A DNA stretch of 64,000 nt, taken from contig CAVOID010000009.1 of assembly GCA_963695875.1 (NCBI GenBank), positions 64,001-128,000 on the forward strand, in the 5' to 3' direction. The stretch is from an uncultured delta proteobacterium. Its GTDB lineage: Bacteria > Desulfobacterota > Syntrophia > Syntrophales > UBA2185. The first letter of the stretch is position 1; each line of letters starts with the position of its first letter. Below, piece after piece: positions 10,218 through 62,385 of the stretch. The notes below the pieces were generated by a model. It was given only the letters and a program-made list of their open reading frames with translations. It made no database searches and was not told the origin of the DNA. The translations under genes and the position numbers were made by a program.

Positions 10218-10224
10218 CAATAGT

Positions 10225-10788: not shown

Positions 10789-10823
10789 GTTAAATTCGCT
10801 CCTTTCATCCTGATCCTGGTTCC

Positions 10824-11933
10824 TTAATTTGCTTCATCTCTCTTGTCAAAAAAATGTTCATCCGTTTCAAATCTTTCTGCAGGAAACAAGGAAAACGGAT
10901 GAAGAGGAAATTTACCTTTGCCCTCGGGAACATCATACACATACTGCGGTATACAAAGACCTGATATATTTCTCCATAATTTTTCCATGATACCTATCCC
11001 TGACAATATGTCTGTACGAAAATGATCCGTACCTTTTACCGGATCGCAATGAAACAAGTAATACGGTCTGACGGAAATCCGTTGAAGTCCGTAAAGCAGA
11101 TTACGCATCGTTTCATAGTTATCATTGATACCTCTAAGCAAAACAGATTGATTTGAGACAGGAACTCCTACTGCCAGCAGCATTTCGCAAGCACGCTCTG
11201 CCTCCGGAGTAATTTCGTTCGGGTGATTGAATTGGGTATTGAACCAAAGTGGACGGTATTTACGCAACATGGAACATAATTGTCGAGTAATTCGCATTGG
11301 CATGACCACTGGGATACGGCTTCCTATACGCAACACCTCTACATGGGGAATAGAACGCAAAGACCGAAGAAACCATTCAAGGGTGCTTTCCTCCATAGTC
11401 AGAGGATCACCGCCTGAAACGATAACTTCACGAATATGCGATGTTTGGGAAATATAATCAATCATGCGCCGGAGGTATCCTTTATTATATTCCGTCGCAT
11501 TAATCTTCCACATTCGCTTGCGATTGCAATGCCGACAGTATGTTGCACAGATATTTGTAATGACCGCAACACAACGATCAGGATAACGATGCACCAGGCC
11601 CGAAACGGGCATGTCCCGTTCTTCTTCGAGGGGATCGGTTACACCACCCAGTGAAAAATTTGTCTCCTTCTGATCGGGAAAACACTGAAGACGAATGGGA
11701 TCATTTTCATCAGCTGCATTCATTAAGGAAAAATAATACGGAGTTATGCTAAAAGGATAATATCTGGCAACGGTTCTGCATTCTTCGAGTTCCGCTGGAG
11801 CCACATTGAAGCATCCGGCCAATTGAGTAATGGTTTGTATCCGGTTATTATATTGCCACTTCCAATCAAACCAGTCTTTCTGTGATACGCCTGCCCATGA
11901 TCTGATAGATGTGGTATGCTTTATTGATTCCAT
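10824..11933 (-). CDS. epmB: KamA-family radical SAM lysine 2,3-aminomutase (EpmB role by context)
   Basis: HRYPDR, CATYCRHC, SGGDPL, NQSVLLRGIND, PYYLF; upstream of efp-epmA. Confidence 0.88.
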   Translation of the reverse strand: MESIKHTTSIRSWAGVSQKDWFDWKWQYNNRIQTITQLAGCFNVAPAELEECRTVARYYPFSITPYYFSLMNAADENDPIRLQCFPDQKETNFSLGGVTDPLEEERDMPVSGLVHRYPDRCVAVITNICATYCRHCNRKRMWKINATEYNKGYLRRMIDYISQTSHIREVIVSGGDPLTMEESTLEWFLRSLRSIPHVEVLRIGSRIPVVMPMRITRQLCSMLRKYRPLWFNTQFNHPNEITPEAERACEMLLAVGVPVSNQSVLLRGINDNYETMRNLLYGLQRISVRPYYLFHCDPVKGTDHFRTDILSGIGIMEKLWRNISGLCIPQYVYDVPEGKGKFPLHPFSLFPAERFETDEHFFDKRDEAN

Positions 11934-15836: not shown

Positions 15837-17751
15837 TTATTTTTCTCTCAAGATACGATGGTCACCCGCCCTGATGGTTAGCTTTGTTATATCAAAGTAT
15901 TCCATCAACGGTATGACGAATTTTCTCGAAAGACCCGTCAACTCTTTGAAGCTTGCCGGTGTCGCCTTGCCGTCTCTCAAAAGGAGGTTTTTATAATTTT
16001 CTCTGAGTCTGAGTAATACGTCTCTGTGAAAGTAAAGGTCTTCATTAATTTTTATCAAAGAACCTTCCTTTAGCATTACATTAATGACGCTTTCGGTCAG
16101 GTTCTTCCGGTCTGCAAATTTTTCCATGAGTTGCTTTACCGTAGGAGGGGTAAGCCCTGCCCCGGTATAGATTCCGGAAATTTCGACACGCAGATCCTCC
16201 AGTTCTCCCTTCAAATCGACCGAGTGCCCCGAGATGCGAAGATTTTCCCTATCAACAACTATTTCCCTCCTATTTTCAAGATCTCTGACAGCCATATTGA
16301 AAAGCCTTGGACTGATTAATTGCCCTATTATATTCCTCAACTCTCCTTTTGATATACCCTCTTTTAGGGGATATCTTTCGTGGTATGCCTGCATTTCAAG
16401 AAGAATCTGCCTCTGTAGATTCTGATAAACTGGAAAAGATATAACCTTGGATTCATCAACGTCTATAATAACAGCCTGTCCTTTTGAATGCATCGATTTA
16501 AACATGTTCTTAAGGAGATTTTGATGAATTCCCGACCTCATCACAAGCTGAAGGAGGTCAATGCCTTCAATGCCGGATCTCTTAATAATGACTGCAACTC
16601 TTTCGGAATCACTACCACTATAGAGCAGATCAAATTCATGCAGTATCTTTTCAGAATTCCTTTTATGTTTTCTGGCAGGAAGAGGGTCGATAATTAGCCC
16701 TCCTCCAATTGTCGTAACAGGCGAGTAGCTCCTGATGACAAACCTATCTCTCGCCATTGCAGCAATGGGAGACGCAAGAATAATCTGTGCATAGCCCTTG
16801 CTCCCGGGTTCCATCTCTTCACTATCGAGGAGTATCATTCTACCTATGACTTCATTTGTCCCCACATGAAACCGTGCCAGATTCCTGTTCTTCAATTTTT
16901 TGGTGTTATTTGATAAATATTCAATGTACAGATCAAGGCGACTTGATGGCTTAAGCGTTTGAGGCCTGGCAAGGACATCTCCTCTCACTATAGTCGCCTT
17001 TTCGACCCCCTGCAGATTTATGGCCGTCCTCTGGCCAGCCTCAGCAATCGTTGCACTCTGATTATGGATTTGAATACCCCGAACCTTCGCGGTAACTCCC
17101 TGTGGCAATATTTCCACATCTTCGCCCAGTCTTATATCTCCGGAAATCAGGGTCCCCGTAACGACCGTCCCGAATCCTTTCATGGTAAACACCCTGTCGA
17201 CAGGCAACCGGAAAAGACCTGCATCTGATTCTCTTTCTATTTCAGATGCCGCACTATCCAGTGCATCCAGTAAGTCTTTAATGCCCGCACCTGTCACTGA
17301 AGAAACCGGGACAACAGGAGATGATTCCAGAAATGTTCCCTTTAAAAATTTATGAATATCCTCTGTCACAAGATCGAGCCATTCCTTATCTACCATGTCA
17401 ATCTTCGTGAGGGCAACTATGCCCCTTTGTAATCCCGAGGAGCGAGCATATATGGAGATGTTCCCGGGTCTGGGGCATGACACCCTCATCTGCCGCTATC
17501 ACAAGAATCACCATATCGATACCGGCAGCTCCGGACACCATATTCTTTATGAATCTTTCATGCCCGGGTACGTCCACTATGCCGAATGTCTGACCGCTTG
17601 GTAAGGTTAGAGAGGCAAAACCAAGCTCAATGCTGATCCCCCTCTCCTTCTCTTCTTTGAGCCTGTCCGTATCAATACCGGTGAGAGCCTTGATAAGGGC
17701 TGTCTTCCCATGATCAACGTGGCCGGCTGTACCAATGATGATATGTTTCAT
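15837..17751 (-). CDS. selB: Selenocysteine-specific elongation factor SelB (frameshift near 17430)
   Basis: [35 protein letters not shown]-terminal winged helix with [15 protein letters not shown]. Confidence 0.96.
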
Positions 17752-17920
17752 GCGGTCTAAATAACAAACTAACTGGTGTTTAACAATAGAAAAATCCCAT
17801 CTTTTTGTATTTTTGCCCATTTGTTGGCTGCAGATGATATGCTAGATTAATGCACTTTTTTCTTGAAAAGTTTAGACTGAACTTGATAGCAAGAAGTGGT
17901 TTAAAAGGATTATGCTTTTC

Positions 17921-40722: not shown

Positions 40723-43063
40723 TTACTCATCCATCACACCCTTTAACAGCGGGGAAATGCCGTCATGGACAAAAGCCTCTATTTCATCGGCATCATCCAT
40801 CGAAAGCACGCGCGTCAGATCCTCCTTTGACTGCACCTGTTCTACGTTCCTGATCAGATGCTTGATAACCGGCACTGAAGGTGCATTCATGCTCAATTGG
40901 TCTATGCCCATCCCCATGTATAGGTAAGCACATTTGGGATTTGCTGCTGCTTCACCACAAATAACTACAGGCTTATCTTGTCTATTACAAACTGAAGCAA
41001 TCTCCAAAATAGTGGCTATCACGGCAGGATGGAGGGGGTTATATATCGGCGCTACCTTTTGATTATTTCTATCCACAGCCAGCACAAACTGGACCAAATC
41101 ATTTGTCCCGACACTGACAAAATCGGCATACCGAAGCAGCTTTTCCAAAATAACGACGGCTGCCGGCACCTCAAGAAGGATTCCTACTTTGATTGTATCA
41201 TTAAACGGAATGCGCCTTCTCCCGTAAACGCACCTTTTCTTCGTTTAAGATTGAATGAATATCTTTCATTTCTCTGACTGAGGATATCATGGGGAACAGT
41301 ACCTTTAAAGAGCCGAAGGGTGATGCCCTTAAAATGGCCCGTATCTGCTCCCTGAAAACATCTCTAAGCTCGAGGGACACCCGGATGGACCTCCAGCCCA
41401 GATAGGGGTTATCCTCTCTGGGATAATCCAGGTAGGACAGAAATTTGTCGCCACCCACGTCGAGTGTACGAATGGTGACTTCCTTCCCTTTGGCCGCCTC
41501 AAGAATCCGCTTGTACAGATCTACCTGCTCATCCTCAGAGGGAAAGCGCTCCCTTACCAGAAAGGGAAATTCTGTTCTGTAAAGGCCGATATGATCAGCC
41601 CCATATTTTTCAACTAGTTCAAAGTCGGATAAAAGTCCGATATTCGCACCAAGCTTGACTTCAAAACCATCCCGCGTCTGAGGCTTCAAGTGTTTTAGGA
41701 TTTCAAGTCTTCCGACCTGCCTTGACTTTTCATCTTCAAGCCGCCGATATTCCCGGATGATGATTTCCGACGGGTTATGGAAGATAAGACCTGATGTGCC
41801 GTCGACAATTAATAAATCATTCTCCTGAATCTCCCTGAACATCACCCTGGAAATAATGACCATAGGTATTTCAAAGGACCTTGCCAGAATTGCCACATGG
41901 GATGTTTCACCGCCTTTTGATAAGATAATGCCCTTAAGGTTCTCCTGCCTGAGCATGATCAGCTCACCGGGAGAAATGCTTGATGCAATTATGATAGTCT
42001 TTCTTGCAAATCTCCTGGGTTCATCATCTTCAAGACCGAGGAGATTTTTTAATATACGTCTCCCGACATTTTCGATATCGGAGCCCCTGTCCCGCAGATA
42101 GTGATCCTCTATTTTGGAAAAGACCCTTACATAGTCTAAAATGACCTCTTTTAAGGCATATTCTGCAGCGTACCTCTGTTTGATATAATTAATCACTTTG
42201 TTTTTCAGACCGCTATCACGGATATACATAAGGTACGTATGGAAGATATCTTCATCTCCGGAGGAGAGCTCGGATTTTACGTCATTGCACAGCCGCTCGA
42301 TCTGCGCTTCGGACCGTTTCAGGGCATTTTCAAGCCTGCTTATCTCATGATCCACATCATCGGCTTCATGAAAATATACATCGGAAAATCCGATTGAATC
42401 CCTAAGATAATGGGTGTGACCATCCCCGAATCCTGCAGACACAGGTATCCCTTTCAAGAGTTCCTTCTTTACTACTCTGGATGCCGTTTCTCTTCGTGAG
42501 CCTAAAAACCACTTCGATGTCTCGTCCGTTTTTTCGGTCTTATTTTTCATGTCTCTCAAAAGATTCGCATAGGCCGCCTCACTTGCTATCTGGGATGAGA
42601 TCATTGAAAATACGGAAATATCCAATTCGCCTATAGCAGTTTCCTCCACAGTCTGAATAACTAAAACTCCAAGGGCTTCACCATGATAAACAAGCGGAAG
42701 CCCCAGGAAACTATGGTACTTTTCTTCGCCGCTGCCTGCGAAATACTTGTATCTAGGATGACGCGCCGGATTTTTTACAAATACAGGCCTCATCTCCTCG
42801 ATGACGAGCCCGGTCAAGCCTTCGTTGAGATTCATGTATATCTTTCCTACCATTTCCTCGCTCAAACCAACTGTAGCAACGAGTGACAGACATTTCCTGT
42901 CTTTATCGAATACATAGATGGAACAAACATCAACGCAAAATTTTTCGGCAATAAGCCTGACAATTTTTCGAAGCGTCTCTGACGGACCGCTAGAACCGGT
43001 GATGATCCTCCCCACATCTTCGATTATAGATATGCCTCTCTCTTTAAACGCTTGTTTACTCAT
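40723..43063 (-). CDS. ptsP: GAF-domain PEP-protein phosphotransferase (EI-Ntr), frameshift near 41210
   Basis: N-terminal GAF, phospho-His motif GGETSHVAILARS, GLYRTEF, RTLDVGGDK, SVGTNDLVQ, CGEAA. Confidence 0.94.
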
Positions 43064-43779: not shown

Positions 43780-44114
43780 GACTGCTCCTGTCTCTTAGTA
43801 TTCGCCTTATCCAGTTATGTGGAAGAAATTCCGACAACCATCAGATATTACTTTTTATGAATTTTATTTATATTAGATCAATTAAACTCTTTAATCAATA
43901 CGAATAGATTATATGTAAAATACGAGGTAAAACCTTGTATTGTAATAATATGAAATGTACCGTTGATAGCACAGGATTTCCCCGTCAGTAATATATTTAT
44001 GCAAGGAAAGCCCCGTGTATTATGCTCTCGGTTAATCAAGCAATCCTTTACCCTAAGGATAATTCGTGATACAAAAATTTAAAATAATTACGGAAAGGGC
44101 AATCAGCCGAAATA

Positions 44115-46195
44115 ATGAAGCGTCGCCACTCGAAGCGATTTACTAAAAATAAGTTTCACAGAAATCCTAAATCCCGCGATCATGCAAGATTACAGGCAGA
44201 CGCTGAACCGGTGCTGAAAGGGATCTTTGCAAAAATCGGAAAGCCCGTCTCGGCACCATTTGCCCCGGACATTTTTCAGCTTCGCGCACTGGAAGCCATC
44301 AGAAGGACTGATTGTCTCGTGGTTGCACCTACAGGTGCCGGGAAAACATGGATCGCCGAGCAGGCGATTCTGTCCGTCTTCAGCAGGGGCGGACGATGCT
44401 GGTATGCCTCTCCTCTGAAGGCACTGACCAATGCCAAATGGGTCGAATTCGGACTCCAGTTTGAAAGCCGGAATGTCGGCATCCTGACAGGCGACACCAA
44501 GGAAAACACCGATGCACCCATCATCGTCGGCACGACGGAAATCCTGAGAAACCAGCTCTATGATGTCATGCACCGCGGGGACGACCTGAATTGTGATCTT
44601 GTCATTCTCGATGAGGCACATTTTCTGGGAGATGACGACAGGGGCGTTGTGTGGGAGGAAGTCATGATCTACCTCCCTGTCAGGATAAATCTCCTCTTGC
44701 TGTCAGCCACCATCGGCAACGGCGATGAGATCGCCCAATGGCTTTCCACCATACGGGGAAAGGAATGCGTTGTCATTAGAGAAGAAAAGAGGCCGGTCCC
44801 TCTGTATCCCCTGTTTCTCCATCCCTCCGGGAGAATCATGCCGTACCTGGAAAAGAAAAGGCTTTTCAGGAAGATCAGCGAATTCCTCGATGAAAAACAG
44901 AACAGGAGACCATATCGCGGGAAGCCCCCTCATTTTGGGGAAATAATCAGAATTTTGGGGAAATTTCAGCTTCTGCCGGCCATCTTTTTCCTTAAATCAC
45001 GATCGGAGTGCGATGCTGCGCTGAAAACCTGCGGGAGGTTATCGGACATTGGACAAGACGATTCTTTTCATTATACCCTGGAAGAACTCATCTCCCGTTT
45101 CCCTTATCTGAAAAACCATAAACAGCTTCATTACCTTACAGACTCAAGGGTGGCCTCCCATCACGCGGGACAGCTCCCTTCCTGGAAATTTCTCGTGGAG
45201 ACAATGATGAAAAGGGGACATCTCCGCGCCATCTTCGCCACGTCCACCGTCGCGGCCGGCGTAAATTTCCCCGCAAGAACCATTGTCCTGTTCAACTCGG
45301 ATCTCTTCAACGGCCGCGAATTCAACCCTTTGACAGGGTACGGAATTTCATCAAATGACGGGAAGGGCCGGGAGGCGCGGCCAGGACAATATCGGCTTCA
45401 TGCTGGTGGTTCCCGGCAGGTTCATGGATATCCTGCATATCAGGCGTCTTCTCTTCAAGAGACCTGAAGATATTCTGAGCCAGATAAAGAATGATTTTTC
45501 CATGGTACTGAATCTCCTTTTATCCCAAACGCCGGAGGATATCAGGAGAATCTTCGAAAATTGCCTCGCGATGTATCAGCACACCCACAGAAAAAAGGGA
45601 GAATACGCGCAGACTGACAGCTCTGACCTGTGGGAAGATTTTCAGAGGCATCTGAATTTTCTCAAGGAAGAAGGATTCGTCGACGAAAATAATCGGCTTA
45701 CGGAAAACGGCTTCTGGGCATCCAAGTTGAGGCTGGATCAACCCCTGCTCATCGCCGAATGTCATAAAGCAGCAGTCTTTCCCGACCGATGATGAAAAAC
45801 TTCTGGCAGCAGTCATTGCCCCTTTTGTCTACGATGGCGATCAGAATATAAAAATGACCGAGCAAAAAACTCTCGCGAAAACTGATCCGGCTGTTACAAC
45901 CGGGTAATCACGACATTAAGGCCGCTCTCTGAACGTATGAAGGCCGCCGGATTTTCCTGTATCCCCACTCTACCTGTGGACATCTTCAGTGATTTATGAT
46001 TGGGCAAGAGGCGTTGACTGGGATGAAATCATCGAAACCGCAGGGATTTCTGACGGAGACATGGCAATGCTGGTTCTCCGAACCGCCGATAACTTACGGC
46101 AGATCACATCCCTGAAAGAAACACATCCTGAAATGGCGGAACTTGCTTTCAAGGCAAGAGAATCAATTCTGCGAGAACCGGTTATTTTCGAATAA
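44115..46195 (+). CDS. Ski2/HelY-like DExH-box RNA helicase (several frameshifts in the 3' half)
   Basis: APTGAGKT, SPLKALTN, TTEILRN, DEAH, SAT, HHAG, GRAGRRG. Confidence 0.9.
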
Positions 46196-46441: not shown

Positions 46442-46517
46442 GTCCCCATCGTCTAGAGGCCTAGGACACCGGCCTTTCACGCCGGTAACCGGGGTTCGAA
46501 TCCCCGTGGGGACGCCA
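46442..46517 (+). tRNA. tRNA-Glu (TTC)
   Basis: 76 nt; acceptor GTCCCCA/TGGGGAC, anticodon arm CCGGC-CTTTCAC-GCCGG, GGTTCGAATCC T-loop, encoded CCA. Confidence 0.98.
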
Positions 46518-51848: not shown

Positions 51849-51995
51849 TATTTCAACCGGCAGCCATTTTACTCTAAAGTATAATTCCTTAGTTTTCAAC
51901 GTCTAAATGTTACCCGTGGCAGCTTAAAGATGCGGGTTTTCATTGGTATAAAGAGGATAAATTGCGCATCAAACCTTATTTTATCCTTTTTATAA

Positions 51996-52063
51996 GTAGC
52001 TTATACCTACCATTGCACTACTATTTTATCATCATTGCCTTACATCGATAAGCACACTAATCT
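51996..52063 (+). promoter_or_regulatory. Shared activator-type promoter, copy 1 (usp-usp-bfr)
   Basis: GTAG-N7-CTACC 51996-52011, TTGCCT 52035-52040, 17 bp, TAATCT 52058-52063. Confidence 0.7.
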
Positions 52064-52142
52064 GCGACCAGAAGATTATTCCAAGGCATTTCGCATGATA
52101 AAATATGTTCTGGAAAAATTACTTTAACTAAAGAAGATAATT

Positions 52143-52595
52143 ATGTTTGTCCCAAAACGTATTCTTGTTCCGACGGACTTTTCCAATTACGCATCATACG
52201 CGCTGAAGCATGCCATTGATATTGCCAAACAGTATCAAGCGGAGATACACCTGCTTCACGTGATTGATGAGAAAATACAGCAGTGTCTCGTCGATTACTG
52301 CCTCAGCGATGCCATAATGGAGCAAATTGCGAAGGAAAGTGTAAAGACGTCTACTGAAAAACTCCAGCAGGAGGCACTCCGCGTGACTGATGCCAATCCG
52401 GGCGTGGAGATTTCCTACAATGTAAGGCAGGGGGTCCCCTATGAGGAGATCATGAACGAGCAGGAGGAGAAAAAAATAGATTTGATTGTGATTGCCTCCC
52501 ACGGCAAGACGGGAAGCCTGAAACATCTCATGGGCAGTGTTGCCGAAAAGGTTTTAAACGGAGCCAAGTCTCAGGTTCTCCTGGTCAAAAGTTGA
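52143..52595 (+). CDS. Universal stress protein
   Basis: ILVPTDFS, LLHV, DLIVIASHG, MGSVAEKV. Confidence 0.95.
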   Translation: MFVPKRILVPTDFSNYASYALKHAIDIAKQYQAEIHLLHVIDEKIQQCLVDYCLSDAIMEQIAKESVKTSTEKLQQEALRVTDANPGVEISYNVRQGVPYEEIMNEQEEKKIDLIVIASHGKTGSLKHLMGSVAEKVLNGAKSQVLLVKS

Positions 52596-52657
52596 AGGAT
52601 ATTTTAATTTCAGGAAAATAAAGATAGGCGCATACAAAATAAAAAAAGGGAAACGTT

Positions 52658-53110
52658 ATGTTTGAGCCTAAAAATATTTTAGTGCCGACGGATTTTTCCG
52701 CCTATGCTGACAAGGCGCTGAGAATAGCTGTCGAGATCGCAAAAAAGTATAACGCAAAGATTTACCTTCTGCATGTCATCAGTGAAGTATTGTATGAGTG
52801 CGGTGTTGATTATTGTCTGAGTAACGCGGATTTGCTGGAGATAGAACAGGTGAGTATGAAAACTTCTACAGATAAACTGCAGGAAGAAGTTAAGAGAATT
52901 AAAGCCTCTTCTGAAGGGTTAGATATAATCTTCGATATAAAGAGGGGGCACCCTTATGAGACGATATTAAACGAACAGGATGACAAAAAGATAGATCTGA
53001 TTGTGATTGCATCACACGGAAGAACCGGGCTCATGAAGCATCTCATCGGCAGTGTTGCCGAAAGGGTTTTAAGGGGAGCCAAGTGTAATGTCCTATTGGT
53101 TAAAAGTTGA
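52658..53110 (+). CDS. Universal stress protein (tandem paralog)
   Basis: ILVPTDFS, DLIVIASHGRTG, IGSVAERV. Confidence 0.95.
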   Translation: MFEPKNILVPTDFSAYADKALRIAVEIAKKYNAKIYLLHVISEVLYECGVDYCLSNADLLEIEQVSMKTSTDKLQEEVKRIKASSEGLDIIFDIKRGHPYETILNEQDDKKIDLIVIASHGRTGLMKHLIGSVAERVLRGAKCNVLLVKS

Positions 53111-53155
53111 CAAGCAGTTTGGGGATCATATCCGATGAAGCTGCCGGCATATCGA

Positions 53156-53220
53156 GGATTCAGGGAGTCAAGGATTCAACGGAATGGTTCAAAGATTTGA
53201 ACCCTCGAATACTGGAATCC
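53156..53220. repeat. Octamer-unit inverted repeat
   Basis: GGATTCAG-GGAGTCAA-GGATTCAA facing TTGAACCC-TCGAATAC-TGGAATCC. Confidence 0.6.
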
Positions 53221-53281
53221 TTTTTGTAACTGAATGTGAGAAGAACCTAAATTAATCTAAACTAAGTAAGAGGAGGTAATC

Positions 53282-53740
53282 ATGAGCAAGAAAGTCATAG
53301 ATTTATTAAACGCTGCGCGATCAAGAGAACTTACCGCTATCCTGCAGTATATGAACCAGCATTACGAATTGGAAGATAAAGACTTTGGCAAGCTCGCAAA
53401 AAAAATGAAAGAAATTGCCATCCAGGAAATGAAACATGCTGAAGCACTGGCTGAAAGGATTCTGTTTTTGAAAGGGACCCCCAATTACAAGCCCGATGCG
53501 GAAGTAGTGAAGGGGCAGGATATTACGGCCATGCTGGTTACAGATACGAAGCTGGAAAACTATGCCATCAAAATGTACAATGAGGCCTCCGCGATCTGTG
53601 CCGCCGAGAATGACCAGATCTCCAAAAATCTCTTTGAAAAACTTCTGGGTGAAGAGGAAGACCATCTCAACTTCTTTGAGAATACCGGAGAGCACGTGGA
53701 AAAACTTGGTGCGGCTTACGTGGCAACCTTGGCTGATTAA
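53282..53740 (+). CDS. bfr: Bacterioferritin
   Basis: ELTAILQY, EMKH (heme Met present), EEEDH di-iron ligands. Confidence 0.88.
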   Translation: MSKKVIDLLNAARSRELTAILQYMNQHYELEDKDFGKLAKKMKEIAIQEMKHAEALAERILFLKGTPNYKPDAEVVKGQDITAMLVTDTKLENYAIKMYNEASAICAAENDQISKNLFEKLLGEEEDHLNFFENTGEHVEKLGAAYVATLAD

Positions 53741-53783
53741 TCACGAAGTTCTATCAGTTGATATCCGAAATAATCTATCTACG

Positions 53784-53822
53784 GAGTATATTCTGTGGCT
53801 ATAAAAGCCACAGGGTATACTC
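53784..53822 (+). terminator. 17-bp hairpin after bfr, probable terminator
   Basis: GAGTATATTCTGTGGCT / AGCCACAGGGTATACTC, fully paired with two G-U pairs, followed by a T-rich run. Confidence 0.65.
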
Positions 53823-53912
53823 TTATATCTCTTCTTTGTCTGTACCAAGAAATGACAGAGAATCATTAAAATATAATGTAGAAGAGGAAACTCTTATCAA
53901 ACGGAGAAATTC

Positions 53913-55541
53913 ATGGAATTCAATGTCGTTATCGGCGGAGAGGCGGGACAGGGTGTTTTTTCTGTTGAACTGGAACTCACAGAAATCCTGTCAAAACTCA
54001 ATTATTATTTTTTCGCCACCAAGAACTACATGTCCAGGATCCGGGGCGGACACAACTTCCACATGGTCCGCATAGCCGAGCAGCCCGTCCATGCCCTGAG
54101 CGGCGGAAAGTGGGACATGGTCATCGCCCTCGACAATGAGACGGACAAGCGGCATAAACCGAACCTCCATGAAAAAGGCATCTATCTTTCCCGGGATCTG
54201 ACGAAAGAGGTTGAAAAAGAGGCCCGTGAAAAATTCAAGGACGTCAAAACCGCCAATTCGATACTGGTTGGTATTGTTCTTTCCGTCATCGGTGTAAGTC
54301 CCGAAAAAACGGCAGAGGCCGCCGAATCTGCAAACGCCCCATACCTGAAGAACGGCTTCGATCTCGCTTCCCGGTGGAAACTTGCAGGCGCCTTCCCTGT
54401 TTCACCCAGGGCGGGGGACCATTGTAAATTCGACGGAAATCAGGCTATCACCCTCGGTTCCCTCCTGGGCGGCTGTCAGTTCATGGCCGGTTACCCAATG
54501 ACGCCGGCTACTTCCATCATGCACTACTTCGCTGAGGCCGCCCAGGAGATGCCGGTACATTTTGAGCAGGCCGAGGATGAGATCTCGGCCATCAACATGG
54601 CCCTGGGTGCATCCTATGCTGGCGTCCGGTCGATGGCGGCCACCTCCGGCGGCGGTTTCGCGCTCATGCAGGAAGGGGTGTCACTGGCAGGCATGACGGA
54701 AACGCCTGTCGTCATCATCGTAGCCCAGCGGCCCGGCCCGGCCACAGGGCTTCCCACCCGGACAGAACAGGGGGATCTCAACTTTGTCCTCCATGCCGGC
54801 CACGGAGAATTCCCCCGGATTATTTTCGCCCCCGGCTCCATCGATGAAACCATCGCTCTCGCCCAAAAGAGCTTCGAACTGGCCGACCGTTATCAGATCC
54901 CTGTTTTTCTCATGACGGATCAGTATTTTGCCGACTCCGTCCATATTATCGAGGATGATATCACGACGGAAGCCCGGAGACGCGAATACAGCATCTTCGA
55001 CAATACCTACAAGAGGTACCGTCTGACGGAGAACGGGATTTCACCGTTAACTTTCCCCGGCCTTTCCGACGCGCTGGTCAAGCTAGATTCCGATGAGCAC
55101 GACGAAGAGGGGAAAATCACGGAGGACCTGAACCTGAGGATCAGGATGGTGGACAAACGCCTGAAGAAATTCGATCTCCTGCGGAAAGATGCCGTACCGC
55201 CCACATTATACGGTGACGCGAAAGCGGCGTCGATAATTCTGTGCTGGGGTTCCAACAAGCTCATTGTGCAAGAAGCCGTGGAAAGGCTTACAGGCGAGGG
55301 GATCAGGACCGGCGCTCTCCATTTCGGACAGGTTTACCCTCTGACGGCGGAAATGATCACACCCTACGGGCTGGAATCGAAGAAGCTTATTTGCGTGGAA
55401 AATAATGCGAGAGGCCAGTTCGCCGGTCTTTTGAAACGGGAATTGGGGCTTAACGTGGCTCATCCGGTGCTGAAATACGACGGTGAATGTTTCACCGTGG
55501 AAGAACTCTATCGGACATTGAAAGACTTAGTACAAAAATAG
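53913..55541 (+). CDS. korA: 2-oxoacid:ferredoxin oxidoreductase alpha subunit (gamma-alpha fusion)
   Basis: GGEAGQG, SRIRGGHN, YPMTPAT, QAEDE, TSGGG, QRPGPATGLPT. Confidence 0.92.
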   Translation: MEFNVVIGGEAGQGVFSVELELTEILSKLNYYFFATKNYMSRIRGGHNFHMVRIAEQPVHALSGGKWDMVIALDNETDKRHKPNLHEKGIYLSRDLTKEVEKEAREKFKDVKTANSILVGIVLSVIGVSPEKTAEAAESANAPYLKNGFDLASRWKLAGAFPVSPRAGDHCKFDGNQAITLGSLLGGCQFMAGYPMTPATSIMHYFAEAAQEMPVHFEQAEDEISAINMALGASYAGVRSMAATSGGGFALMQEGVSLAGMTETPVVIIVAQRPGPATGLPTRTEQGDLNFVLHAGHGEFPRIIFAPGSIDETIALAQKSFELADRYQIPVFLMTDQYFADSVHIIEDDITTEARRREYSIFDNTYKRYRLTENGISPLTFPGLSDALVKLDSDEHDEEGKITEDLNLRIRMVDKRLKKFDLLRKDAVPPTLYGDAKAASIILCWGSNKLIVQEAVERLTGEGIRTGALHFGQVYPLTAEMITPYGLESKKLICVENNARGQFAGLLKRELGLNVAHPVLKYDGECFTVEELYRTLKDLVQK

Positions 55542-55667
55542 AATCAGAGGGCTGTCCAAAGCTGGCGGGATGCTGGGGGTGGTCCTGTAGTCGTGAAAGT
55601 CCCTCTGAGATCGTCCGTTTGACTAAAGGGAGACTGAAAGGAATGCACTTCTCAGAGGAGTTGAAAC

Positions 55668-56494
55668 ATGATGGCAAGAACCGATACCGCCTGGTGTCCC
55701 GGCTGCGGCAATTTTCCCATCCGGGACGTTCTGGAAAAAGCCTTACAGGAACTCCCTGTTCCCAAGAAAGACATCGTCCTCACATCGGGTATCGGGCAGG
55801 CCGCCAAGATGCCCCATTACCTGGATGTGAATTTTTTCAACGGGCTCCACGGCCGCGTCCCTGCCGCTTGCCGTCGGGATCAAGCTGGCCAGGCCGGACC
55901 TCACTGTCATTACATACTCCGGTGACGGCTGCAACTACGGCGAAGGAGGAAATCATTTCATCCACACCATACGAAGGCGTTTGGATATCACGATATTGAC
56001 CTCCAATAACCAGGTCTACGGCCTGACCAAGGGGCAAAGCTCTCCCACGACTGACTTCTCCGTGAAGAATGACCTGGCCCCACAGGGAAATCAGAACATC
56101 CCCTTGAACCCTGTCGCCCTGGCCATCAGCCATGGGAGCCCCCTTCGTGGCCCGTGGTTTTGCCGGTGAAAGGGAGCACCTGAAGGAACTGATCAAGGAA
56201 GCCATCCTCTTCAAGGGGACAGCTCTCGTGGATATCCTTTCACCCTGTGTCACCTTCAACAAGATCGATACCTACCAGTGGTACAAAGAAAGGGCCTTCA
56301 AGCTGGAGCATCCGCTGACAGACCGTTATGAAGCACTGAGGATGGCCGATCTCTGGGGCGATAAGATCCCCATCGGAGTCATATACCGGGATGAAAAAAT
56401 GGCATTGCGGGAAGTGAAGAATATTTTCCGGGAGCAGTTAACGGAAGAGGATATTGCGTGCCAGCTCAAGATGAGATGTGTCATGATGAGATGA
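55668..56494 (+). CDS. korB: 2-oxoacid:ferredoxin oxidoreductase beta subunit (frameshifts near 55860 and 56130)
   Basis: [40 protein letters not shown]. Confidence 0.92.
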
Positions 56495-56576
56495 CAGCGT
56501 TTCCATCTACATATTCTATTTCGTCTGATCCGTTGGTTCAAATCCAATGCAAATCCGGTGTGATACCCTCCCTTAT

Positions 56577-56645
56577 GGTAGTTTTTACCTACCAATCAGC
56601 TTACAATTAATCACTGTTGTTTTAACCCCCTCCGTCACCTAGTGT
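56577..56645 (+). promoter_or_regulatory. Shared activator-type promoter, copy 2 (wrbA operon)
   Basis: Perfect GGTAG-N7-CTACC 56577-56593, TTGTTT 56617-56622, 17 bp, TAGTGT 56640-56645. Confidence 0.65.
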
Positions 56646-56741
56646 TTTAAATCAGTATACACGAATGAAGGTGTATGCCGTCAATATCAGAAATGATTTC
56701 AACACGGAAAAATATATCACGCAATCGAGGGGAGGCATACC

Positions 56742-57359
56742 ATGAAGGTTCTGATTGTATACTATTCCATGTACGGCCATATTCACCGGATGGCGGAAGC
56801 CGTGGCGGAAGGTGCAAAGGGGGTTAAAGGTGCTGATGTTTCCATGTATCGTGTCCCCGAGACGCTCACCGAAGAAGCTCTGAAAAAAATGGGCGCCCTC
56901 GAGGCCCAGAAAAGTTTTGCCCATGTCCCTGTCTGCAAGGTTGACGATCTCGCTTCGGCGGACGCGATAATCTTCGGCACACCGACGCGATTCGGCAATA
57001 TGTGCGGGCAGATGCGCCAGTTCCTCGACGCGACCGGAGGCCTGTGGGTCAAAGGCGCCCTTGTCGGAAAGGTAGGAAGCGTCTTCGCAAGCAGCGCAAC
57101 CCAGCACGGCGGCCAGGAATCCACGATTCTCACTTTCCACACCTTTTTACTGCATCAAGGCATGATCATTGCCGGCCTGCCCTATGCCTTTGAAGGACAA
57201 ATGCGCATCGACGAGATCACGGGCGGTTCCCCATACGGGGCATCCACGATTGCCGGGACCAAAGGCGACCGCATGCCCAGCGAAAACGAACTGAATGCAG
57301 CCCGGTTCCAGGGCAAATTCGTGGCGGAGATCGCGGCGAAACTTTCCCGTCAGGCGTAG
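56742..57359 (+). CDS. wrbA: NAD(P)H:quinone oxidoreductase WrbA
   Basis: [30 protein letters not shown]. Confidence 0.97.
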
Positions 57360-57374
57360 AGGAATAAAGGAGGG

Positions 57375-57596
57375 ATGGAAATGGATCACTCCTCAGTAGA
57401 TGAGGCATGGCAAAGATTACAGGCCCGCATCGAGCAACTGCTTCATCCCATGTTCAGAATTATTCTGATCCTCGACGTCTTTGAGCATGCCTATTACATC
57501 GATTACAAAAATGACCGGGCTAAATTTGTCGATGCGTTCTGGAACATCATAAACTGGAGCAAAGCAGGCAAGAGGCTGGAAGAGTTATTGAGCTGA
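57375..57596 (+). pseudogene. C-terminal fragment of Fe/Mn superoxide dismutase behind an unrelated N-terminus
   Basis: [30 protein letters not shown]-terminal metal-ligand domain absent. Confidence 0.85.
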
Positions 57597-57632
57597 GTGG
57601 AGTATAACCATACCAATTTTCAGTTAGCAGCC

Positions 57633-59753
57633 ATGACAAAAAAAGGGCCCAATATAAAGTATAGTTTTGATCTCCGTGGGCAGGCGGAAAAAAGAATACC
57701 CAATTCAATGGAGAGCTTAGCGGATATGTCTGTTCTCGAAGTCCGGAAGATTGTTCACGAGCTGCATGTTCACCAGATAGAGTTGGAAATGCAGAATGAT
57801 GAATTGCGTAAGACGCAGATGGAGCTTACGGAATCACACCACAAGTATACCGACCTTTACGATTTCGCCCCCGTCGGGTATTTCACATTAGACAAAAAGG
57901 GTCATATCATCGAGACGAATGTGACGGGTGCCGCCTTACTCGGCTCAGAAAAGCGATCTCTCATCAGACAGCCTTTCCATCGTTTTATCATGCCCGGCCA
58001 TTTCAGTATCTTCCAGTCCCATCTCCAGATGACCATTGAGATTAAAAGCAAGCAGACCTGCAAACTGAAGCTCACCCGGAAGGACGGGAGTATGTTCGAT
58101 GCGCTGATCGATACCACAGCGGTGACGGATGGCGGCGGTAATTTTGATCACTACCGGTCTTCGGTAACCGACATCACGGATATCACTAAGGCAGAGGAGT
58201 CTCTGATAAGAGCCCATGCAGAGATGGAGGAACGGGTCAGGGAGCGTACTGCTCAACTCGATATGGCAAACAGAGAAGCACAGAGACATTCCCAATTATT
58301 GGATTTGGCAAATGACGCTATCCTGATTTGCGACCTGTACGGCAACATAACGTACTGGAATAAAGGTGCGGAAAAACTTTACGGATGGTCGAGAAATGAG
58401 GCGATAGGGCAAAATATTCTAAGCCTGTTGCAGACGGAACCCTTGCTGAAATCGAAAGACATACGTGAGAGATTTTTCCGCGATGGTTATTGGGAAGGAG
58501 AACGTTTACACACAAAGAAGGACGGCAGAAAAGTAACGGTGCACAGCCGCTGGACATTACAGCGCGATGACAAGAAGAAGCCTGTTGCTTTCTCGGAGAT
58601 CAACCGCGATATTACCGAACTCAAGCGAAAGGAAAAAGAGCTTCACGACACAGCCTTATACTCCCGCAGACTTATTGAGGCAAGCCTCGACCCCCTCGTC
58701 ACAATCAGTGCCAGGGGCAAGATTATGGATGTGAACAAAGCTGCGGAAGATGCTACGGGTATACCGAGAAAGAGGCTCATCGGAAGCGATTTCTCCGATT
58801 ATTTCACCGACCCGGAGAAAGCAAGAGCAGGGTACGAAATGGTATTTTCGCAGGGCTTCGTTAAAGACTACCCTCTGGCCATCCGCCATACATCAGGCCG
58901 GACGATGGAGGTCCTGTATAACGCAACGACCTATAAAAATGATGCAGGAGAGGTGGTGGGCGTTTTTGCAGCCGCCCGCGACATTACCGAACTCAGAACA
59001 GCGCAGAAAGCCTTACAGGAATCCCATGACGATTTGGAGCGCCGGGTTGCGGAACGGACAGCCAAACTTGAAGCTGTAAACAAGGAACTGGAAAGCTTCA
59101 GCTACTCTGTCTCCCACGACCTCCGCGCCCCCCTGCGTGCCATTGACGGCTACGCACGCATGATCCTCAAAAAACAAGGGGATAAATTCGATGAAGACAC
59201 ACTCTCTAAATTTAATGTAATAAGATCGAGTGCGCATATGATGGGCCAGCTTATCGACGATCTCCTGACCTTTTCCCGCCTTGGCAGGAAGGAGATTTCC
59301 ATGTCGAAGCTGGACATGCATGCTCTTATCAATGATGTATGGAAAGAACTGCGCATCATCAATCCGGACAGGAACATGTTCCTGACTCTTCAAGGCCTTC
59401 CTTCCGGATATGGAGACAGGTCACTCGTTAAACAGGTGTATTCCAACCTTCTGGGGAACGCCGTCAAATTTACCAAATACCGGGAGGCCGCATATATCGA
59501 AGCAGGTGGATACACAGATGGAAACGAGGGCGTCTATTACATTAAAGACAATGGTGTCGGCTTCGACATGACGTACTATGATAAGTTGTTCGGCGTGTTT
59601 CAGCGTCTTCACAGCACCGATGATTTTGAGGGCACAGGTGTCGGCCTGGCGACTGTCCAGCGCATCATACGCAGGCATGGCGGGCGCGTATGGGCGGAAG
59701 GCGGAACGGACAGGGGCGCGACCTTCTATTTTACACTACGCGGAAAGGAGTAA
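57633..59753 (+). CDS. Cytoplasmic multi-PAS sensor histidine kinase
   Basis: HELHVHQIELEMQN coil, three PAS/PAC units, SVSHDLRAPL H-box, NAVKF, DNGVG, GTGVGL. Confidence 0.95.
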   Translation: MTKKGPNIKYSFDLRGQAEKRIPNSMESLADMSVLEVRKIVHELHVHQIELEMQNDELRKTQMELTESHHKYTDLYDFAPVGYFTLDKKGHIIETNVTGAALLGSEKRSLIRQPFHRFIMPGHFSIFQSHLQMTIEIKSKQTCKLKLTRKDGSMFDALIDTTAVTDGGGNFDHYRSSVTDITDITKAEESLIRAHAEMEERVRERTAQLDMANREAQRHSQLLDLANDAILICDLYGNITYWNKGAEKLYGWSRNEAIGQNILSLLQTEPLLKSKDIRERFFRDGYWEGERLHTKKDGRKVTVHSRWTLQRDDKKKPVAFSEINRDITELKRKEKELHDTALYSRRLIEASLDPLVTISARGKIMDVNKAAEDATGIPRKRLIGSDFSDYFTDPEKARAGYEMVFSQGFVKDYPLAIRHTSGRTMEVLYNATTYKNDAGEVVGVFAAARDITELRTAQKALQESHDDLERRVAERTAKLEAVNKELESFSYSVSHDLRAPLRAIDGYARMILKKQGDKFDEDTLSKFNVIRSSAHMMGQLIDDLLTFSRLGRKEISMSKLDMHALINDVWKELRIINPDRNMFLTLQGLPSGYGDRSLVKQVYSNLLGNAVKFTKYREAAYIEAGGYTDGNEGVYYIKDNGVGFDMTYYDKLFGVFQRLHSTDDFEGTGVGLATVQRIIRRHGGRVWAEGGTDRGATFYFTLRGKE

Positions 59754-59762
59754 ATTGTTATT

Positions 59763-60206
59763 ATGGATGGAGTTGATATTCTCGTCATTGAAGATAATCG
59801 TCACGATGTTGAGATGATTCTCGAAACCATTAGTGAGCAAGATATCAGTGATACCGTTCATGTCATAAATGATGGTGCGGAAGCAATCGACTATTTTTTC
59901 GGCCCGCAAGGATGCGTCGAGGATGTTTCCTGTCATCTTCCCAAATTGATACTGCTCGATTTAAAACTTCCCAAAGTCAGCGGCCTTGAGGTTCTGAAAA
60001 GCATCAGATCCGATGAACGGACAAGGTATATCCCGACTGTCGTTTTTACTTCATCCAATGAAGCGCGGGACAGAATAGAAAGCTACCTGCTTGGGGCCAA
60101 CAGTTATATTGTAAAGCCCATGGATGCTGATAAATTTTCACGTTTTGTCGCGGAGATCGGATCATACTGGGTATTTATGAACAAATCAACCTACGACGGT
60201 GCATAG
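59763..60206 (+). CDS. Single-domain response regulator (Rcp1-like)
   Basis: IEDN, LLDLKLP, FTSS, GANSYIVKP. Confidence 0.94.
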   Translation: MDGVDILVIEDNRHDVEMILETISEQDISDTVHVINDGAEAIDYFFGPQGCVEDVSCHLPKLILLDLKLPKVSGLEVLKSIRSDERTRYIPTVVFTSSNEARDRIESYLLGANSYIVKPMDADKFSRFVAEIGSYWVFMNKSTYDGA

Positions 60207-60255
60207 ACTCGTACAATGAAGATTCAATTCCCGGGAGAGGATGGAGGCTAATACC

Positions 60256-61497
60256 ATGAGCAAGGAATTAAGAATATTGATTCTTGAGGATGTTCCTACG
60301 GATGCCGAATTGATGGAAGACGAACTTAAAGAGTCAGGCATGACCTTCATATCGAAGCGCGTCGCCGCAAGAACGGCTTTTATCAACGCGATTAATGGCT
60401 TTTGCCCGGACATTATCCTTTCAGATTATTCCCTGCCTTCATTTGACGGTCAGTCCGCATTAAAGATTGCCATGGAAAAATGCCCCGATACTCCCTTCAT
60501 TTTTGTTTCCGGGGCGTTGGGTGAAGAAATGGCGATTGAACTGCTCAAAAAGGGAGCAACCGATTATGTCTTGAAAAATAGGCTGTCACGCCTCGGGCCC
60601 GCCGTTTCCCGGGCACTGAACGAGGTCGAAGAACGGAACGAGCGAAAACGTTTTGAAGATGCACTGAAGGAATCGGAGGTAAGATACAGGACAATTTTTG
60701 AAAACACGGGAACGGCGACTATTATAATCGATGAAGATACAACGATCATTCTTGCCAACAGACAGTTTGAAAGACTGTCCGGTTTTTCAAGGTCTGAGAT
60801 TGAGGGCAAAAAAAACTGGACGGAATTTGTTATTAAAGATGATCTGGTAAAAGTAAACGACCTCAAGCAGCCATGGAGGAAGCATTTCAAACTGCCGTCG
60901 GACGGCTATGAATTCAGTCTTACCGGCAGGCAGGGGAACATACGAAATGTTCTGGCGAATATTGCGCTGATGCCGTCAACGAAGAGAACCGTCATGTCCC
61001 TTCTGGACATCACAGAACGGAAAGCGGCCGAGGAAGCCCTGAAAAAAAGGGAACAGGAACTTGAGTTAAAATCACAAAGTCTTCAGGAGGCCAATACGGC
61101 ATTAAAGGTCCTGCTGAAACATAGGGAAGAAGATAAGACCACTCTGGAAGAGCAAGTGCTGGCCAATGTTAAGAAGCTAGTTCTGCCCTACCTGGAAAAA
61201 TTAAAGAATCTTAAGTTAGATAAAAACCAGCTGGTCCATGTGGAGATCATAGAGGCGCATCTGAACGACATTATTTCACCATTTTTGCGCAATCTGACCT
61301 CGGCATACCTCAACCTGACACCCAGGGAAATTGAAGTAGCCAGCCTGGTCAAGGAAGGTAAGACGACAAAAGAAATAACCGAGCTGCTTAACATATCGGC
61401 AACAGCGGTGGACTTCCACAGAAAAAACCTTCGTTCAAAATTTGGCATAAAGAGCAAAAAAACAAATCTCAGGTCATATCTAACGTCCGTCTCTTGA
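60256..61497 (+). CDS. REC-PAS-LuxR response regulator
   Basis: LILED, SDYSLP receiver; PAS; C-terminal LTPREIEVASLVKEGKTTKEI...VDFHRKNLR HTH; GGAGG before ATG 60256. Confidence 0.94.
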   Translation: MSKELRILILEDVPTDAELMEDELKESGMTFISKRVAARTAFINAINGFCPDIILSDYSLPSFDGQSALKIAMEKCPDTPFIFVSGALGEEMAIELLKKGATDYVLKNRLSRLGPAVSRALNEVEERNERKRFEDALKESEVRYRTIFENTGTATIIIDEDTTIILANRQFERLSGFSRSEIEGKKNWTEFVIKDDLVKVNDLKQPWRKHFKLPSDGYEFSLTGRQGNIRNVLANIALMPSTKRTVMSLLDITERKAAEEALKKREQELELKSQSLQEANTALKVLLKHREEDKTTLEEQVLANVKKLVLPYLEKLKNLKLDKNQLVHVEIIEAHLNDIISPFLRNLTSAYLNLTPREIEVASLVKEGKTTKEITELLNISATAVDFHRKNLRSKFGIKSKKTNLRSYLTSVS

Positions 61498-61499
61498 TA

Positions 61500-61567
61500 G
61501 GAGATTATACCTACCATTGAGCTGTCATTTTATCCTCATTGCTCCGCCCCAATGAGCACACTAGTAT
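61500..61567 (+). promoter_or_regulatory. Shared activator-type promoter, copy 3 (second pal)
   Basis: GGAG-N7-CTACC 61500-61515, TTGCTC 61539-61544, 17 bp, TAGTAT 61562-61567; 45/59 ungapped identity to copy 1. Confidence 0.7.
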
Positions 61568-61767
61568 TCTAATTGGATAAATGAAATACATTACATATTA
61601 TGGCAGTATGCATTCAATCGCACACCATTCCGCTCAGCAGAAGGGGGATATTAGTGTGATTGATTGTTATTTTCAAAAATCTTAATCGACAAACGGGGAT
61701 TATGTTGCTTTAAGCATAGCGCTGGTGACTCCACCGAATAAGAAATGAAGGAAGAAAGGAGAGAAAA

Positions 61768-62385
61768 ATGAGAAGACAGAAATTTTTTATGACATTAGTT
61801 TTGGCAGCCATTCTTCTTGTATTTATTCTGCCCATAGGATGTGCAAAAAAAGCTGTCACGAAAGAGGAGGCCGTGGAAAAACAGGCGCCCGCACAACCTA
61901 CGGAAACAGCCAAGGAAAAGGAGCTGGAGGACGCTTTGGCTAAGGAGAAGGCAAAAGAAAGAGCTGCGGAAGAACAGTTGGCGAGGGAGCAGGCCGGTGA
62001 AGAGGCGGCTGCTGTGGAGGCGGCTGCTAATGCGGCAAGAGAAGCATCACAGTTTGAAGACATCCATTTTGCCTTTGACCGTTTTGACCTGAGGCCCGAT
62101 GCAAGAGAGATCTTAGATATGCACGCAAAGTGGCTTAAGGCACATCCCGAATATGTTGTGCGTATAGAGGGAAATTGTGATGACCGGGGTACGGTAGAAT
62201 ACAACCTCGCCCTTGGTGATAGACGGGCGAAGACTGCCATGACATACTTGGTCGATCTCGGCATTAATAAAGCAAGAATTAGCACGATAAGCTACGGGAA
62301 GGAGCAACCTCTTGATCCGGAGCATAATGAAGAGGCCTGGGCAAAGAATAGAAGAGATCATTTCGTCGTGACAAAGAAAAAATGA
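61768..62385 (+). CDS. pal: Second peptidoglycan-associated lipoprotein Pal
   Basis: Lipobox PIGC, IEGNCDDRGTVEYNLALGDRRA, ISYGKE, AWAKNRR. Confidence 0.93.
   Translation: MRRQKFFMTLVLAAILLVFILPIGCAKKAVTKEEAVEKQAPAQPTETAKEKELEDALAKEKAKERAAEEQLAREQAGEEAAAVEAAANAAREASQFEDIHFAFDRFDLRPDAREILDMHAKWLKAHPEYVVRIEGNCDDRGTVEYNLALGDRRAKTAMTYLVDLGINKARISTISYGKEQPLDPEHNEEAWAKNRRDHFVVTKKK

Follow-up and report, generated by a model that had tools for sequence, protein, structure and literature searches.

A candidate operator-promoter element of a REC-PAS-LuxR regulator and the stress-type regulon predicted from it in an uncultured Syntrophales bacterium

NarL of Escherichia coli recognizes inverted heptamers in a 7-2-7 arrangement, and the DosR regulon of Mycobacterium tuberculosis is autoregulated and enriched in usp genes. 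At the ComA promoters of Bacillus subtilis an inverted repeat is followed by a direct repeat with a period of 11 base pairs (bp) beside a poor -35 hexamer, and ComA acts there with alpha and sigma (passages of PMC4797271); in NarL, residues K188, V189 and K192 contact bases (passages of PMC10853779). The subject of this analysis is a 76-bp element present in three copies in a 64,000-nucleotide window of DNA from an uncultured Syntrophales bacterium (contig CAVOID010000009.1; the window is G000:C9:64001-128000, where G000 is the source genome and C-numbers are its contigs), together with the REC-PAS-LuxR protein whose gene ends where the third copy begins. The element is considered, with a probability of roughly 0.8, to be a sigma-70 promoter activated by this protein; judged from comparison of sequences, it would represent a real and apparently undescribed class of activator-dependent promoter that heads a regulon of general-stress type.

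The three copies in the window, with transcription starts predicted from their -10 hexamers, are as follows.

51991..52066, +: element copy 1, matrix score 77; left half 51993-51999; half-sites 52007-52013 (CTACCAT), 52018-52024 and 52029-52035; -35 TTGCCT 52035-52040; -10 TAATCT 52058-52063; predicted start ~52070
56573..56648, +: element copy 2, 5' of wrbA and the signalling operon, score 57, best dyad of the three; ATGGTAG 56575-56581; CTACCAA 56589-56595; -35 TTGTTT 56617-56622; -10 TAGTGT 56640-56645; predicted start ~56652
61495..61570, +: element copy 3, beginning at the LuxR stop codon, score 61.8 at offset 0; ATAGGAG 61497-61503; CTACCAT 61511-61517; -35 TTGCTC 61539-61544; -10 TAGTAT 61562-61567; predicted start ~61574

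The original prediction had aligned the three leaders without gaps, and realignment and recounting confirm both the alignment and the identity of 45/59 between copies 1 and 3; the corresponding values are 33/59 for copies 1 and 2 and 35/59 for copies 2 and 3. A GTAG-N7-CTACC dyad had been ascribed to every copy, but site 3 has GGAG instead of GTAG; its left half is damaged, being one base shorter than in two congeneric genomes. What had been taken for an A/T-rich ATC block is really a pair of further half-sites at an 11-bp period. A generic promoter scan of the window picked up none of the three sites, as would be expected of weak hexamers.

A matrix built from the three seed sites only was scanned over the genome and found 19 further places scoring at least 19.5; after iteration over the whole genome 27 sites scored above 30 for the 76-bp element, the next best reaching 18.6. 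Random occurrence does not account for these sites, as their leave-one-out scores range from 18 to 80 while 5.7 Mb of order-4 Markov sequence never exceeded 18.5 when scored by the seed matrix, or 5.4 when scored by the 27-site matrix. The regulon first proposed for three promoters extends over the genome, with about 25 sites rather than three. By simple open reading frame (ORF) calls made for this analysis, all 27 sites are intergenic (background 20%) and 26 have a same-strand gene downstream (background 54%). The -35 TTG, 17-bp gap and TA-type -10 described for the window recur throughout the genome, with TA exactly 17 bp past the -35 hexamer in 24/27 sites (0-4 at other spacings) and the final T in 19.

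The layout can be written as ATRGTAG, 7 bp, CTACCAT, 4 bp, CTWCYAT, 4 bp, TCMYYAT (the last T opens the -35 TTG), 17 bp, TAnnnT; it comprises four 7-bp half-sites, an inverted pair 7 bp apart and then two direct copies that run at an 11-bp period into the -35 TTG. Given a start 7 bp past the -10, the centre of the inverted pair would lie near -67 and that of the direct pair near -43.5. A scan by geometry only recovered 14 elements, where eight wrong geometries gave 0-6; in 13 of the 14, TA stands at 17 bp (background 7.8%). When all 1024 NNNNNAT half-sites were compared by a class-agnostic scan, CTACCAT came out on top with 18 sites (median 0). At C9 135160/135184 one dyad is common to two divergent promoters.

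A structured RNA, either a 3'-end hairpin or a leader, would be another way to read such a dyad, since it can pair as a hairpin of 6-7 bp (copy 2) and compensating changes of its left and right halves fit RNA too. The folding z-scores of the three copies are -0.1, -0.8 and -0.1, with no common fold, and an Rfam search at the three element positions gave no match; neither covariation of direct repeats nor a -10 at constant spacing is characteristic of RNA, and many copies occupy gaps between divergent genes, where they precede their own promoter, so that the probability of an RNA element is close to negligible.

The protein proposed to activate the promoter contains a REC domain (D62), a PAS domain, a helical hairpin and a LuxR-type helix-turn-helix (HTH) with its recognition helix at residues 386-396. 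It matches PF00196 (GerE) at 51 bits against a cut-off of 23.5, as do 58/58 aligned family members; the REC domain matches the LvrB model NF047466 over residues 8-146 (E 1.8e-44) at 152 bits, below the cut-off of 500. Modelled as a single sequence, the full protein reached a predicted local distance difference test (pLDDT) score of 47.9, too low for use, and the structural reading concerns the C-terminal part, whose 138-residue model (pLDDT 89) features a long helix and hairpin followed by the LuxR HTH. The HTH model matches DegU, NarL and DosR at Z 9.2-9.5 (NarL at Z 9.4, with a root-mean-square deviation of 2.0 over 62 residues); a Foldseek search gave no match at E <= 0.001. The hairpin was considered as a dimer domain resembling that of histidine kinases (DHp-like), which is unsupported: only generic helical matches at Z <= 6.8 (query 1-66) were obtained, with no HisKA-type match among the 25 Pfam families listed. 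It is conjectured that the hairpin may space two HTHs for the 7-bp spacer. By alignment, helix residues T388, D391, F392 and K395 correspond to NarL S185, K188, V189 and K192.

Fourteen LuxR-HTH genes were found in the genome, ten of which belong to the subfamily of the window protein, and the paralogs offer a way to connect protein and site. The C11 and C8 paralogs have variant elements that begin at their stop codons (scores 11.0 and 11.4); weaker ones are found at those of C7 and C15, and another 24 bp behind the C5 paralog. The family occurs in 53/201 other genomes of the phylum examined; a TTG is located at +44 from the stop register in 51/161 members from Syntrophales and other Desulfobacterota (next offset 11), and in 99/331 members of an enlarged Desulfobacterota set (next best offset 18), from which 7 matches had been dropped as partial, broken or short. 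Each of these has its own half-site. Among 37 elements, proteins more than 85% identical having been removed, the left half mirrors half 1 within an element (5.08/7 v 3.40 across elements, 0/5000 permutations) and half 2 repeats half 1 (3.81 v 2.84, 0/5000), half 3 more weakly (21/5000). These signals peak solely at spacer 7 and period 11, and the geometry is repeated by 29 held-out elements from other families and metagenomes (5.10 v 3.06 for the mirror, 4.21 v 2.73 for the repeat).

The half-site also follows the recognition helix. With overall identity removed, F392, T388 and K395 are the three protein columns to which the half-site is most closely tied; a set of four helix positions reaches a partial Mantel r of 0.43, random column sets at most 0.29. 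Held-out half-sites were predicted from the helix at 5.45/10 v 4.10 from the nearest relative (16 better, 5 worse, p=0.002), the other baselines being 4.41 for the global consensus and at most 4.79 for random columns. In a set of 70 elements, C accompanies F at helix position 7 in 48/51 cases and a residue other than F in 0/19, while K, N or E at helix position 10 goes with C, A or G at base 4 in 23/28, 25/34 and 20/20 half-sites; a further rule, linking G at helix position 3 to A at base 5, failed (2/15). CTACCAT accompanies [T/N]AVDFHRKN helices at three separate, unresolved places of the tree, and as this is the helix type of the window protein, the latter is likely the activator.

Co-occurrence of site and regulator orthologs points the same way. 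Pattern and close orthologue occur together in 18 of 41 relatives; 1 relative carries just the orthologue, 3 carry just the pattern, and 19 lack both. A survey of 151 genomes of the order gave 14, 4, 8 and 125 in these four classes, of which 7, 4, 5 and 123 lie outside the bacterium's own family. When discordant genomes were rechecked, G438, G009 and G035 were seen to have the helix, and G379, G404 and G446 to have a site near the gene; G406 and G416 hold single pattern matches. The strict CTACCAT pattern gave 1 match in 300 other genomes of the phylum, so the regulon was not found outside Syntrophales there. Activation by the REC-PAS-LuxR protein, as originally predicted, has independent comparative support from paralog-specific gene-end elements that covary with the helix and from co-occurrence.

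Several observations weigh against this reading. The co-occurrence counts are drawn from kin that are not independent, and they are partly trivial, as the gene's own adjacent site counts as pattern. In G004, G005, G012 and G451 (82-100% complete, fragmented) there are 1-3 sites, and no gene with a window-type helix was found; in G037 the gene is present and no site was found. The C8 NarL-type gene occurs in 14/21 site-bearing genomes (one copy broken) and in 2/20 without sites. No TTG stands at the exact register in 232/331 family members, some of which have it shifted by 1-37 bp. Independent-pair tests on trees were underpowered and gave 1-4 supported pairs, none significant, the 70-row tree having been made by a quick method; ancestry is thereby reduced, not excluded, as a cause of the code. 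A same-strand gene 3' of gene-end elements is not clearly enriched (56/81 v 141/210; 36/42 v 106/149, p=0.07), and in the genus g6 the gene-end copy often has no TTG or -10 while its half-sites persist, so part of the gene-end copies may have another role or none. At 8 of the 17 related loci whose upstream sequence extends to 4 kb or more, no site lies within 4-6 kb upstream of the kinase-regulator-LuxR operon.

Part of this would agree with a different main reader, either the NarL-type protein of G000:C8:219412-220065 or an OmpR/PhoB-type regulator acting on the 11-bp repeats, with the LuxR gene a mere neighbour of one copy; this is considered very unlikely. The C8 NarL gene sits behind an element copy and co-occurs with the element, four genomes have sites with no matching LuxR helix found, and the 11-bp direct repeats by the -35 resemble the Pho box, whose consensus consists of 11-bp direct repeats at the -35, read by a winged-helix regulator; site 3 even contains CTGTCAT. 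Such a reader, however, leaves unexplained the 99 LuxR-gene-end half-sites that stand at one register and change with the helix, and the NarL orthologue is missing in 7/21 site-bearing genomes, the LuxR orthologue in 3/21. The Pho box agrees in its period of 11, but the inverted half and the link to the LuxR helix do not fit it.

It is also unlikely that the LuxR protein binds but represses, or that the gene-end copy serves autoregulation through a roadblock or looping. The overlap of the last half-site with the -35 TTG would suit repression, as would the lack of a clear same-strand enrichment and the g6 half-sites that persist as -35 and -10 decay. Activation is favoured instead by the weak -35 and -10 hexamers, whose distance from the operator is fixed, and by an inverted- and direct-repeat layout like that of the activator ComA (passages of PMC4797271); moreover, 26/27 dispersed copies point at a gene.

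With the REC-PAS-LuxR protein as the likely activator, the genes behind its sites would be its targets; their families were assigned by scanning 61 + 58 proteins, chosen from 103 ORFs of 20 regions, plus the window proteins. Many are stress genes: three usp genes, a bacterioferritin-like gene, wrbA, pfpI, sodC, cfa, ytxH, hcp with hemerythrin, a quinol nitric oxide reductase (qNor) with hemerythrin and usp, and a glucan phosphorylase (glgP). The others are a glycogen-synthase-like gene with a sugar transferase, a flavin reductase and nitroreductase, a rhodanese, single REC proteins, a REC-PAS-HisKA_3 kinase with a NarL-type regulator, DUF1499, two ABC transporters, glyoxalase-type genes and a number of small ORFs with no family assigned. 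The content of RpoS and SigB regulons resembles these targets (usp, ferritin-like genes, wrbA, pfpI/yhbO, sodC, cfa, glycogen enzymes, ytxH). Four sigma-70 factors were found in the genome, namely RpoD, one ECF factor, RpoH and FliA; neither RpoS nor SigB is among them (the genome is 82.6% complete).

Several of the target regions have features of their own. The REC-PAS-HisKA_3 kinase at G000:C8 220037-221542 (L162:2038-3543, -) has a REC domain 77% identical to that of the window LuxR protein, with an element copy upstream and the NarL-type regulator downstream; the C8 kinase/NarL pair is proposed as a second output branch of the window phosphorelay. Similar small ORFs of 77 and 66 residues, with no Pfam match, stand first behind element copies at G000:C9 136651-136884 and C4 167726-167926, and the same is true of similar membrane proteins of 113-116 residues, also with no Pfam match, at G000:C4 113663-114013 and C5 57404-57745. 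At G000:C5 203393-204390 a transposase-like ORF on the opposite strand lies 44 bp behind an element copy and may have severed the copy from its target.

The genes around the three window copies are these.

52143-52595, +: usp
52658-53110, +: usp
53282-53740, +: bacterioferritin-like gene (bfr), TIGR00754 at 99 bits, below the cut-off of 125.55
53783-53823, +: 18-pair hairpin between the bfr and oxidoreductase genes
56742..57359, +: wrbA, NAD(P)H:quinone oxidoreductase type IV, above cut-off
57375..57596, +: Fe/Mn superoxide dismutase remnant, C-terminal part only
57597..59753, +: histidine kinase with three PAS, HisKA (H507) and HATPase
59763..60206, +: single-domain response regulator (D66)
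60241..61497, +: REC-PAS-LuxR protein, 418 residues, the proposed activator
61768..62385, +: pal (OmpA family), now the first gene behind copy 3

The hairpin at 53783-53823 probably ends the usp-usp-bfr transcript. From wrbA to the LuxR gene the gaps are 15, 0, 9 and 34 bp, with no terminator-like site within; the superoxide dismutase remnant has a 203-residue homologue that precedes the kinase in the related locus L089, and the single-domain regulator is presumably Rcp1-like, a label carried over from the original prediction. The positive feedback loop proposed there, conditional on a single transcript from wrbA to the regulator genes, has a conserved layout: a site lies upstream of the operon in 9/17 related loci, the first gene in most of these being either wrbA or usp.

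The third promoter had been assigned to pal, which is now its first gene, but relatives have degP first and pal second. An ORF of 470-500 residues lies directly behind the LuxR gene in 12 related loci, with pal next in 10, and is read as DegP/HtrA at L076 by recognition of motifs in its sequence. About 1.5 kb with degP in relatives is missing from the window, the junction falling in 61542..61667 (+), and a search for a degP copy elsewhere in the genome found nothing closer than 51%. As degP is first behind LuxR in relatives and deleted here, pal would be a derived first target.

The 2-oxoacid:ferredoxin oxidoreductase beta subunit gene at window 55668-56494 (+) is split over three frames, and a helicase gene (44115-45792), a selB-like gene (15837-17820) and a ptsP-like gene (40723-43063) also seem split. 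Several split genes in one window suggest indel errors in the assembly, and a sequencing error could therefore also explain why copy 3 has one base fewer in its left half.

How the copies arose was addressed with 25 of them, two variant-looking ones having been set aside by eye. The original prediction read conserved blocks with variable spacers as binding sites rather than a recent duplication; the spacers are not entirely free, those of 17 bp being more alike than shuffled ones (identity 0.36 v 0.27, 0/500), and two site groups retain relics of the LuxR 3' end, so that duplication had some part. Copy C8+159710 retains, in exact register, the codons of the LuxR gene for L-R-S-Y (score 13.6; 1 in 10,000, from 9673 background windows), and one orthologous site group in the genus g6 also keeps a relic of the last LuxR codons. 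Such relics in register suggest that at least some targets joined the regulon through copying of the gene tail with its promoter. A LuxR-tail origin of all dispersed copies is unsupported, mean upstream identity being 15.7 v 15.4 in the null (86 sites), and a relic above the 99th percentile occurs in 1/26 dispersed G000 copies only. The best copy pairs are 53-68/76 identical; C7 13163-13238 (-) and C11 135919-135994 (+) agree in 68/76 bases and in 28/30 upstream bases with different genes behind them, and we take this pair to be a recent promoter duplication.

These data were also considered for the view of the element as chiefly a promoter that moves or is duplicated, or as a recombination-prone repeat, which spread together with gene modules and whose regulon content is secondary. 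The likeness of the 17-bp and 7-bp spacers, the two relic groups, the C7/C11 pair and the gene behind the LuxR-adjacent copy, which differs between lineages, all lend themselves to it. Even so, except in that one pair the sequence on either side of the 25 copies is near background, similarity ends at the -10, and it takes selection for binding to change three half-sites in concert with the helix. Duplication is compatible with function, so the mobile-repeat view fails only as the sole explanation; as such it is highly improbable.

One further element in the window departs from the others in its half-site.

43867..43942, -: variant element, half-site CTCGTAT (4/7 to CTACCAT), 5' of a 94-residue ORF and a GAF-containing ptsP-like gene

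It is probably read by another paralog; variants like it occur at G000:C9-217897, C5+203393 and C3-101724, and may form a small regulon of that kind. Elsewhere in the window, efp stands in one cluster with epmB-like and epmA-like genes at 10225-11933 and 9291-10268 (-), as read from the sequence, and a tRNA gene lies at 46442-46514 (+; Rfam RF00005, 61.7 bits).

The mechanism we propose is modelled in part on ComA. A dimer of the LuxR protein on the inverted pair would recruit RNA polymerase through the C-terminal domain of the alpha subunit, and a second dimer on the direct pair would act beside sigma. The three-PAS kinase would phosphorylate the REC domain of the LuxR protein, with the single-domain regulator serving as relay or sink. 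The activator would then turn on the genes for oxidative, nitrosative and general stress that lie behind about 25 promoters, and would also drive its own operon, in positive feedback, and the second REC-PAS-kinase/NarL pair.

In the wider subfamily of Desulfobacterota, about one third of the genes would carry a cognate operator-promoter at the stop codon, its half-site set by three to four helix residues; most paralogs would have one or few sites and the window protein a large regulon. Members at L108, L187, L189, L196, L201 and L215 are often in tandem, with the gene-end element before or near the next paralog, and such arrangements could make activation cascades. Taken further, the subfamily would be a self-contained cassette of sensor domains, helix and stop-codon-fused operator-promoter, with hundreds of natural protein-DNA pairs that yield a readable code (F or non-F at the V189 position for C or T; K, N or E at the K192 position for C, A or G), regulons that grow by tail copying, and one Syntrophales member acting as general stress regulator in place of RpoS/SigB; this broader picture could equally well prove right or wrong.

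The general stress response of syntrophic anaerobes is poorly understood; a candidate for its master regulator is now proposed, along with the site and about 25 promoters as targets, in organisms in which RpoS and SigB were not found. Genes with their own operator constitute many natural protein-DNA pairs, by which the LuxR/NarL helix recognition code becomes directly testable through single substitutions; they would also be useful for regulon prediction in uncultured Desulfobacterota and as orthogonal activator-promoter pairs for engineering, and the relics outline a concrete route for the growth of a regulon from one promoter.

No description of the motif or the family was found in the literature within reach, which excluded RegPrecise and most subscription journals; 'LuxR' does not occur in the main-text passages of the Desulfovibrio regulator survey PMC3333781, supplements aside. 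Among described systems, the ComA promoters share with the element a LuxR/NarL-type HTH activator, an inverted repeat followed by a direct repeat that is more degenerate, with its nearer half better kept, and the housekeeping sigma factor; they differ in having TTGCGG with a 4-bp spacer, whereas CTACCAT with a 7-bp spacer and four contiguous halves are seen here (passages of PMC4797271). Unlike ComA, the window protein has a PAS domain and a hairpin between REC and HTH, is one of ten paralogs, and has a site at its own stop codon and stress rather than quorum targets. NarL is alike in its HTH fold and in that the covarying residues are its helix-9 positions, and the direct pair lies near -43.5, where NarL binds at yeaR (passages of PMC10853779); the arrangement here is 7-7-7 with direct repeats, the symmetry peaking at spacer 7 (5.1/7) with the others <=2.5 among spacers 3-11 (spacer 2 is outside the scored range). 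LvrB of Leptospira belongs to the same REC family (PMC13269768), but the window output is a LuxR HTH and not a kinase. The RpoS and SigB regulons differ in that control here seems to rest on the activator. The DosR regulon is alike in having a LuxR-family regulator, tens of genes and sites common to divergent promoters, but its motif TTSGGGACTWWAGTCCCSAA is not matched by the element consensus (passages of PMC2275270); it also belongs to another phylum with other sensors, and no heme GAF sensor was seen here. The element would work like the ComA inverted- and direct-repeat promoters and like DosR-type stress regulons, and is a member of neither.

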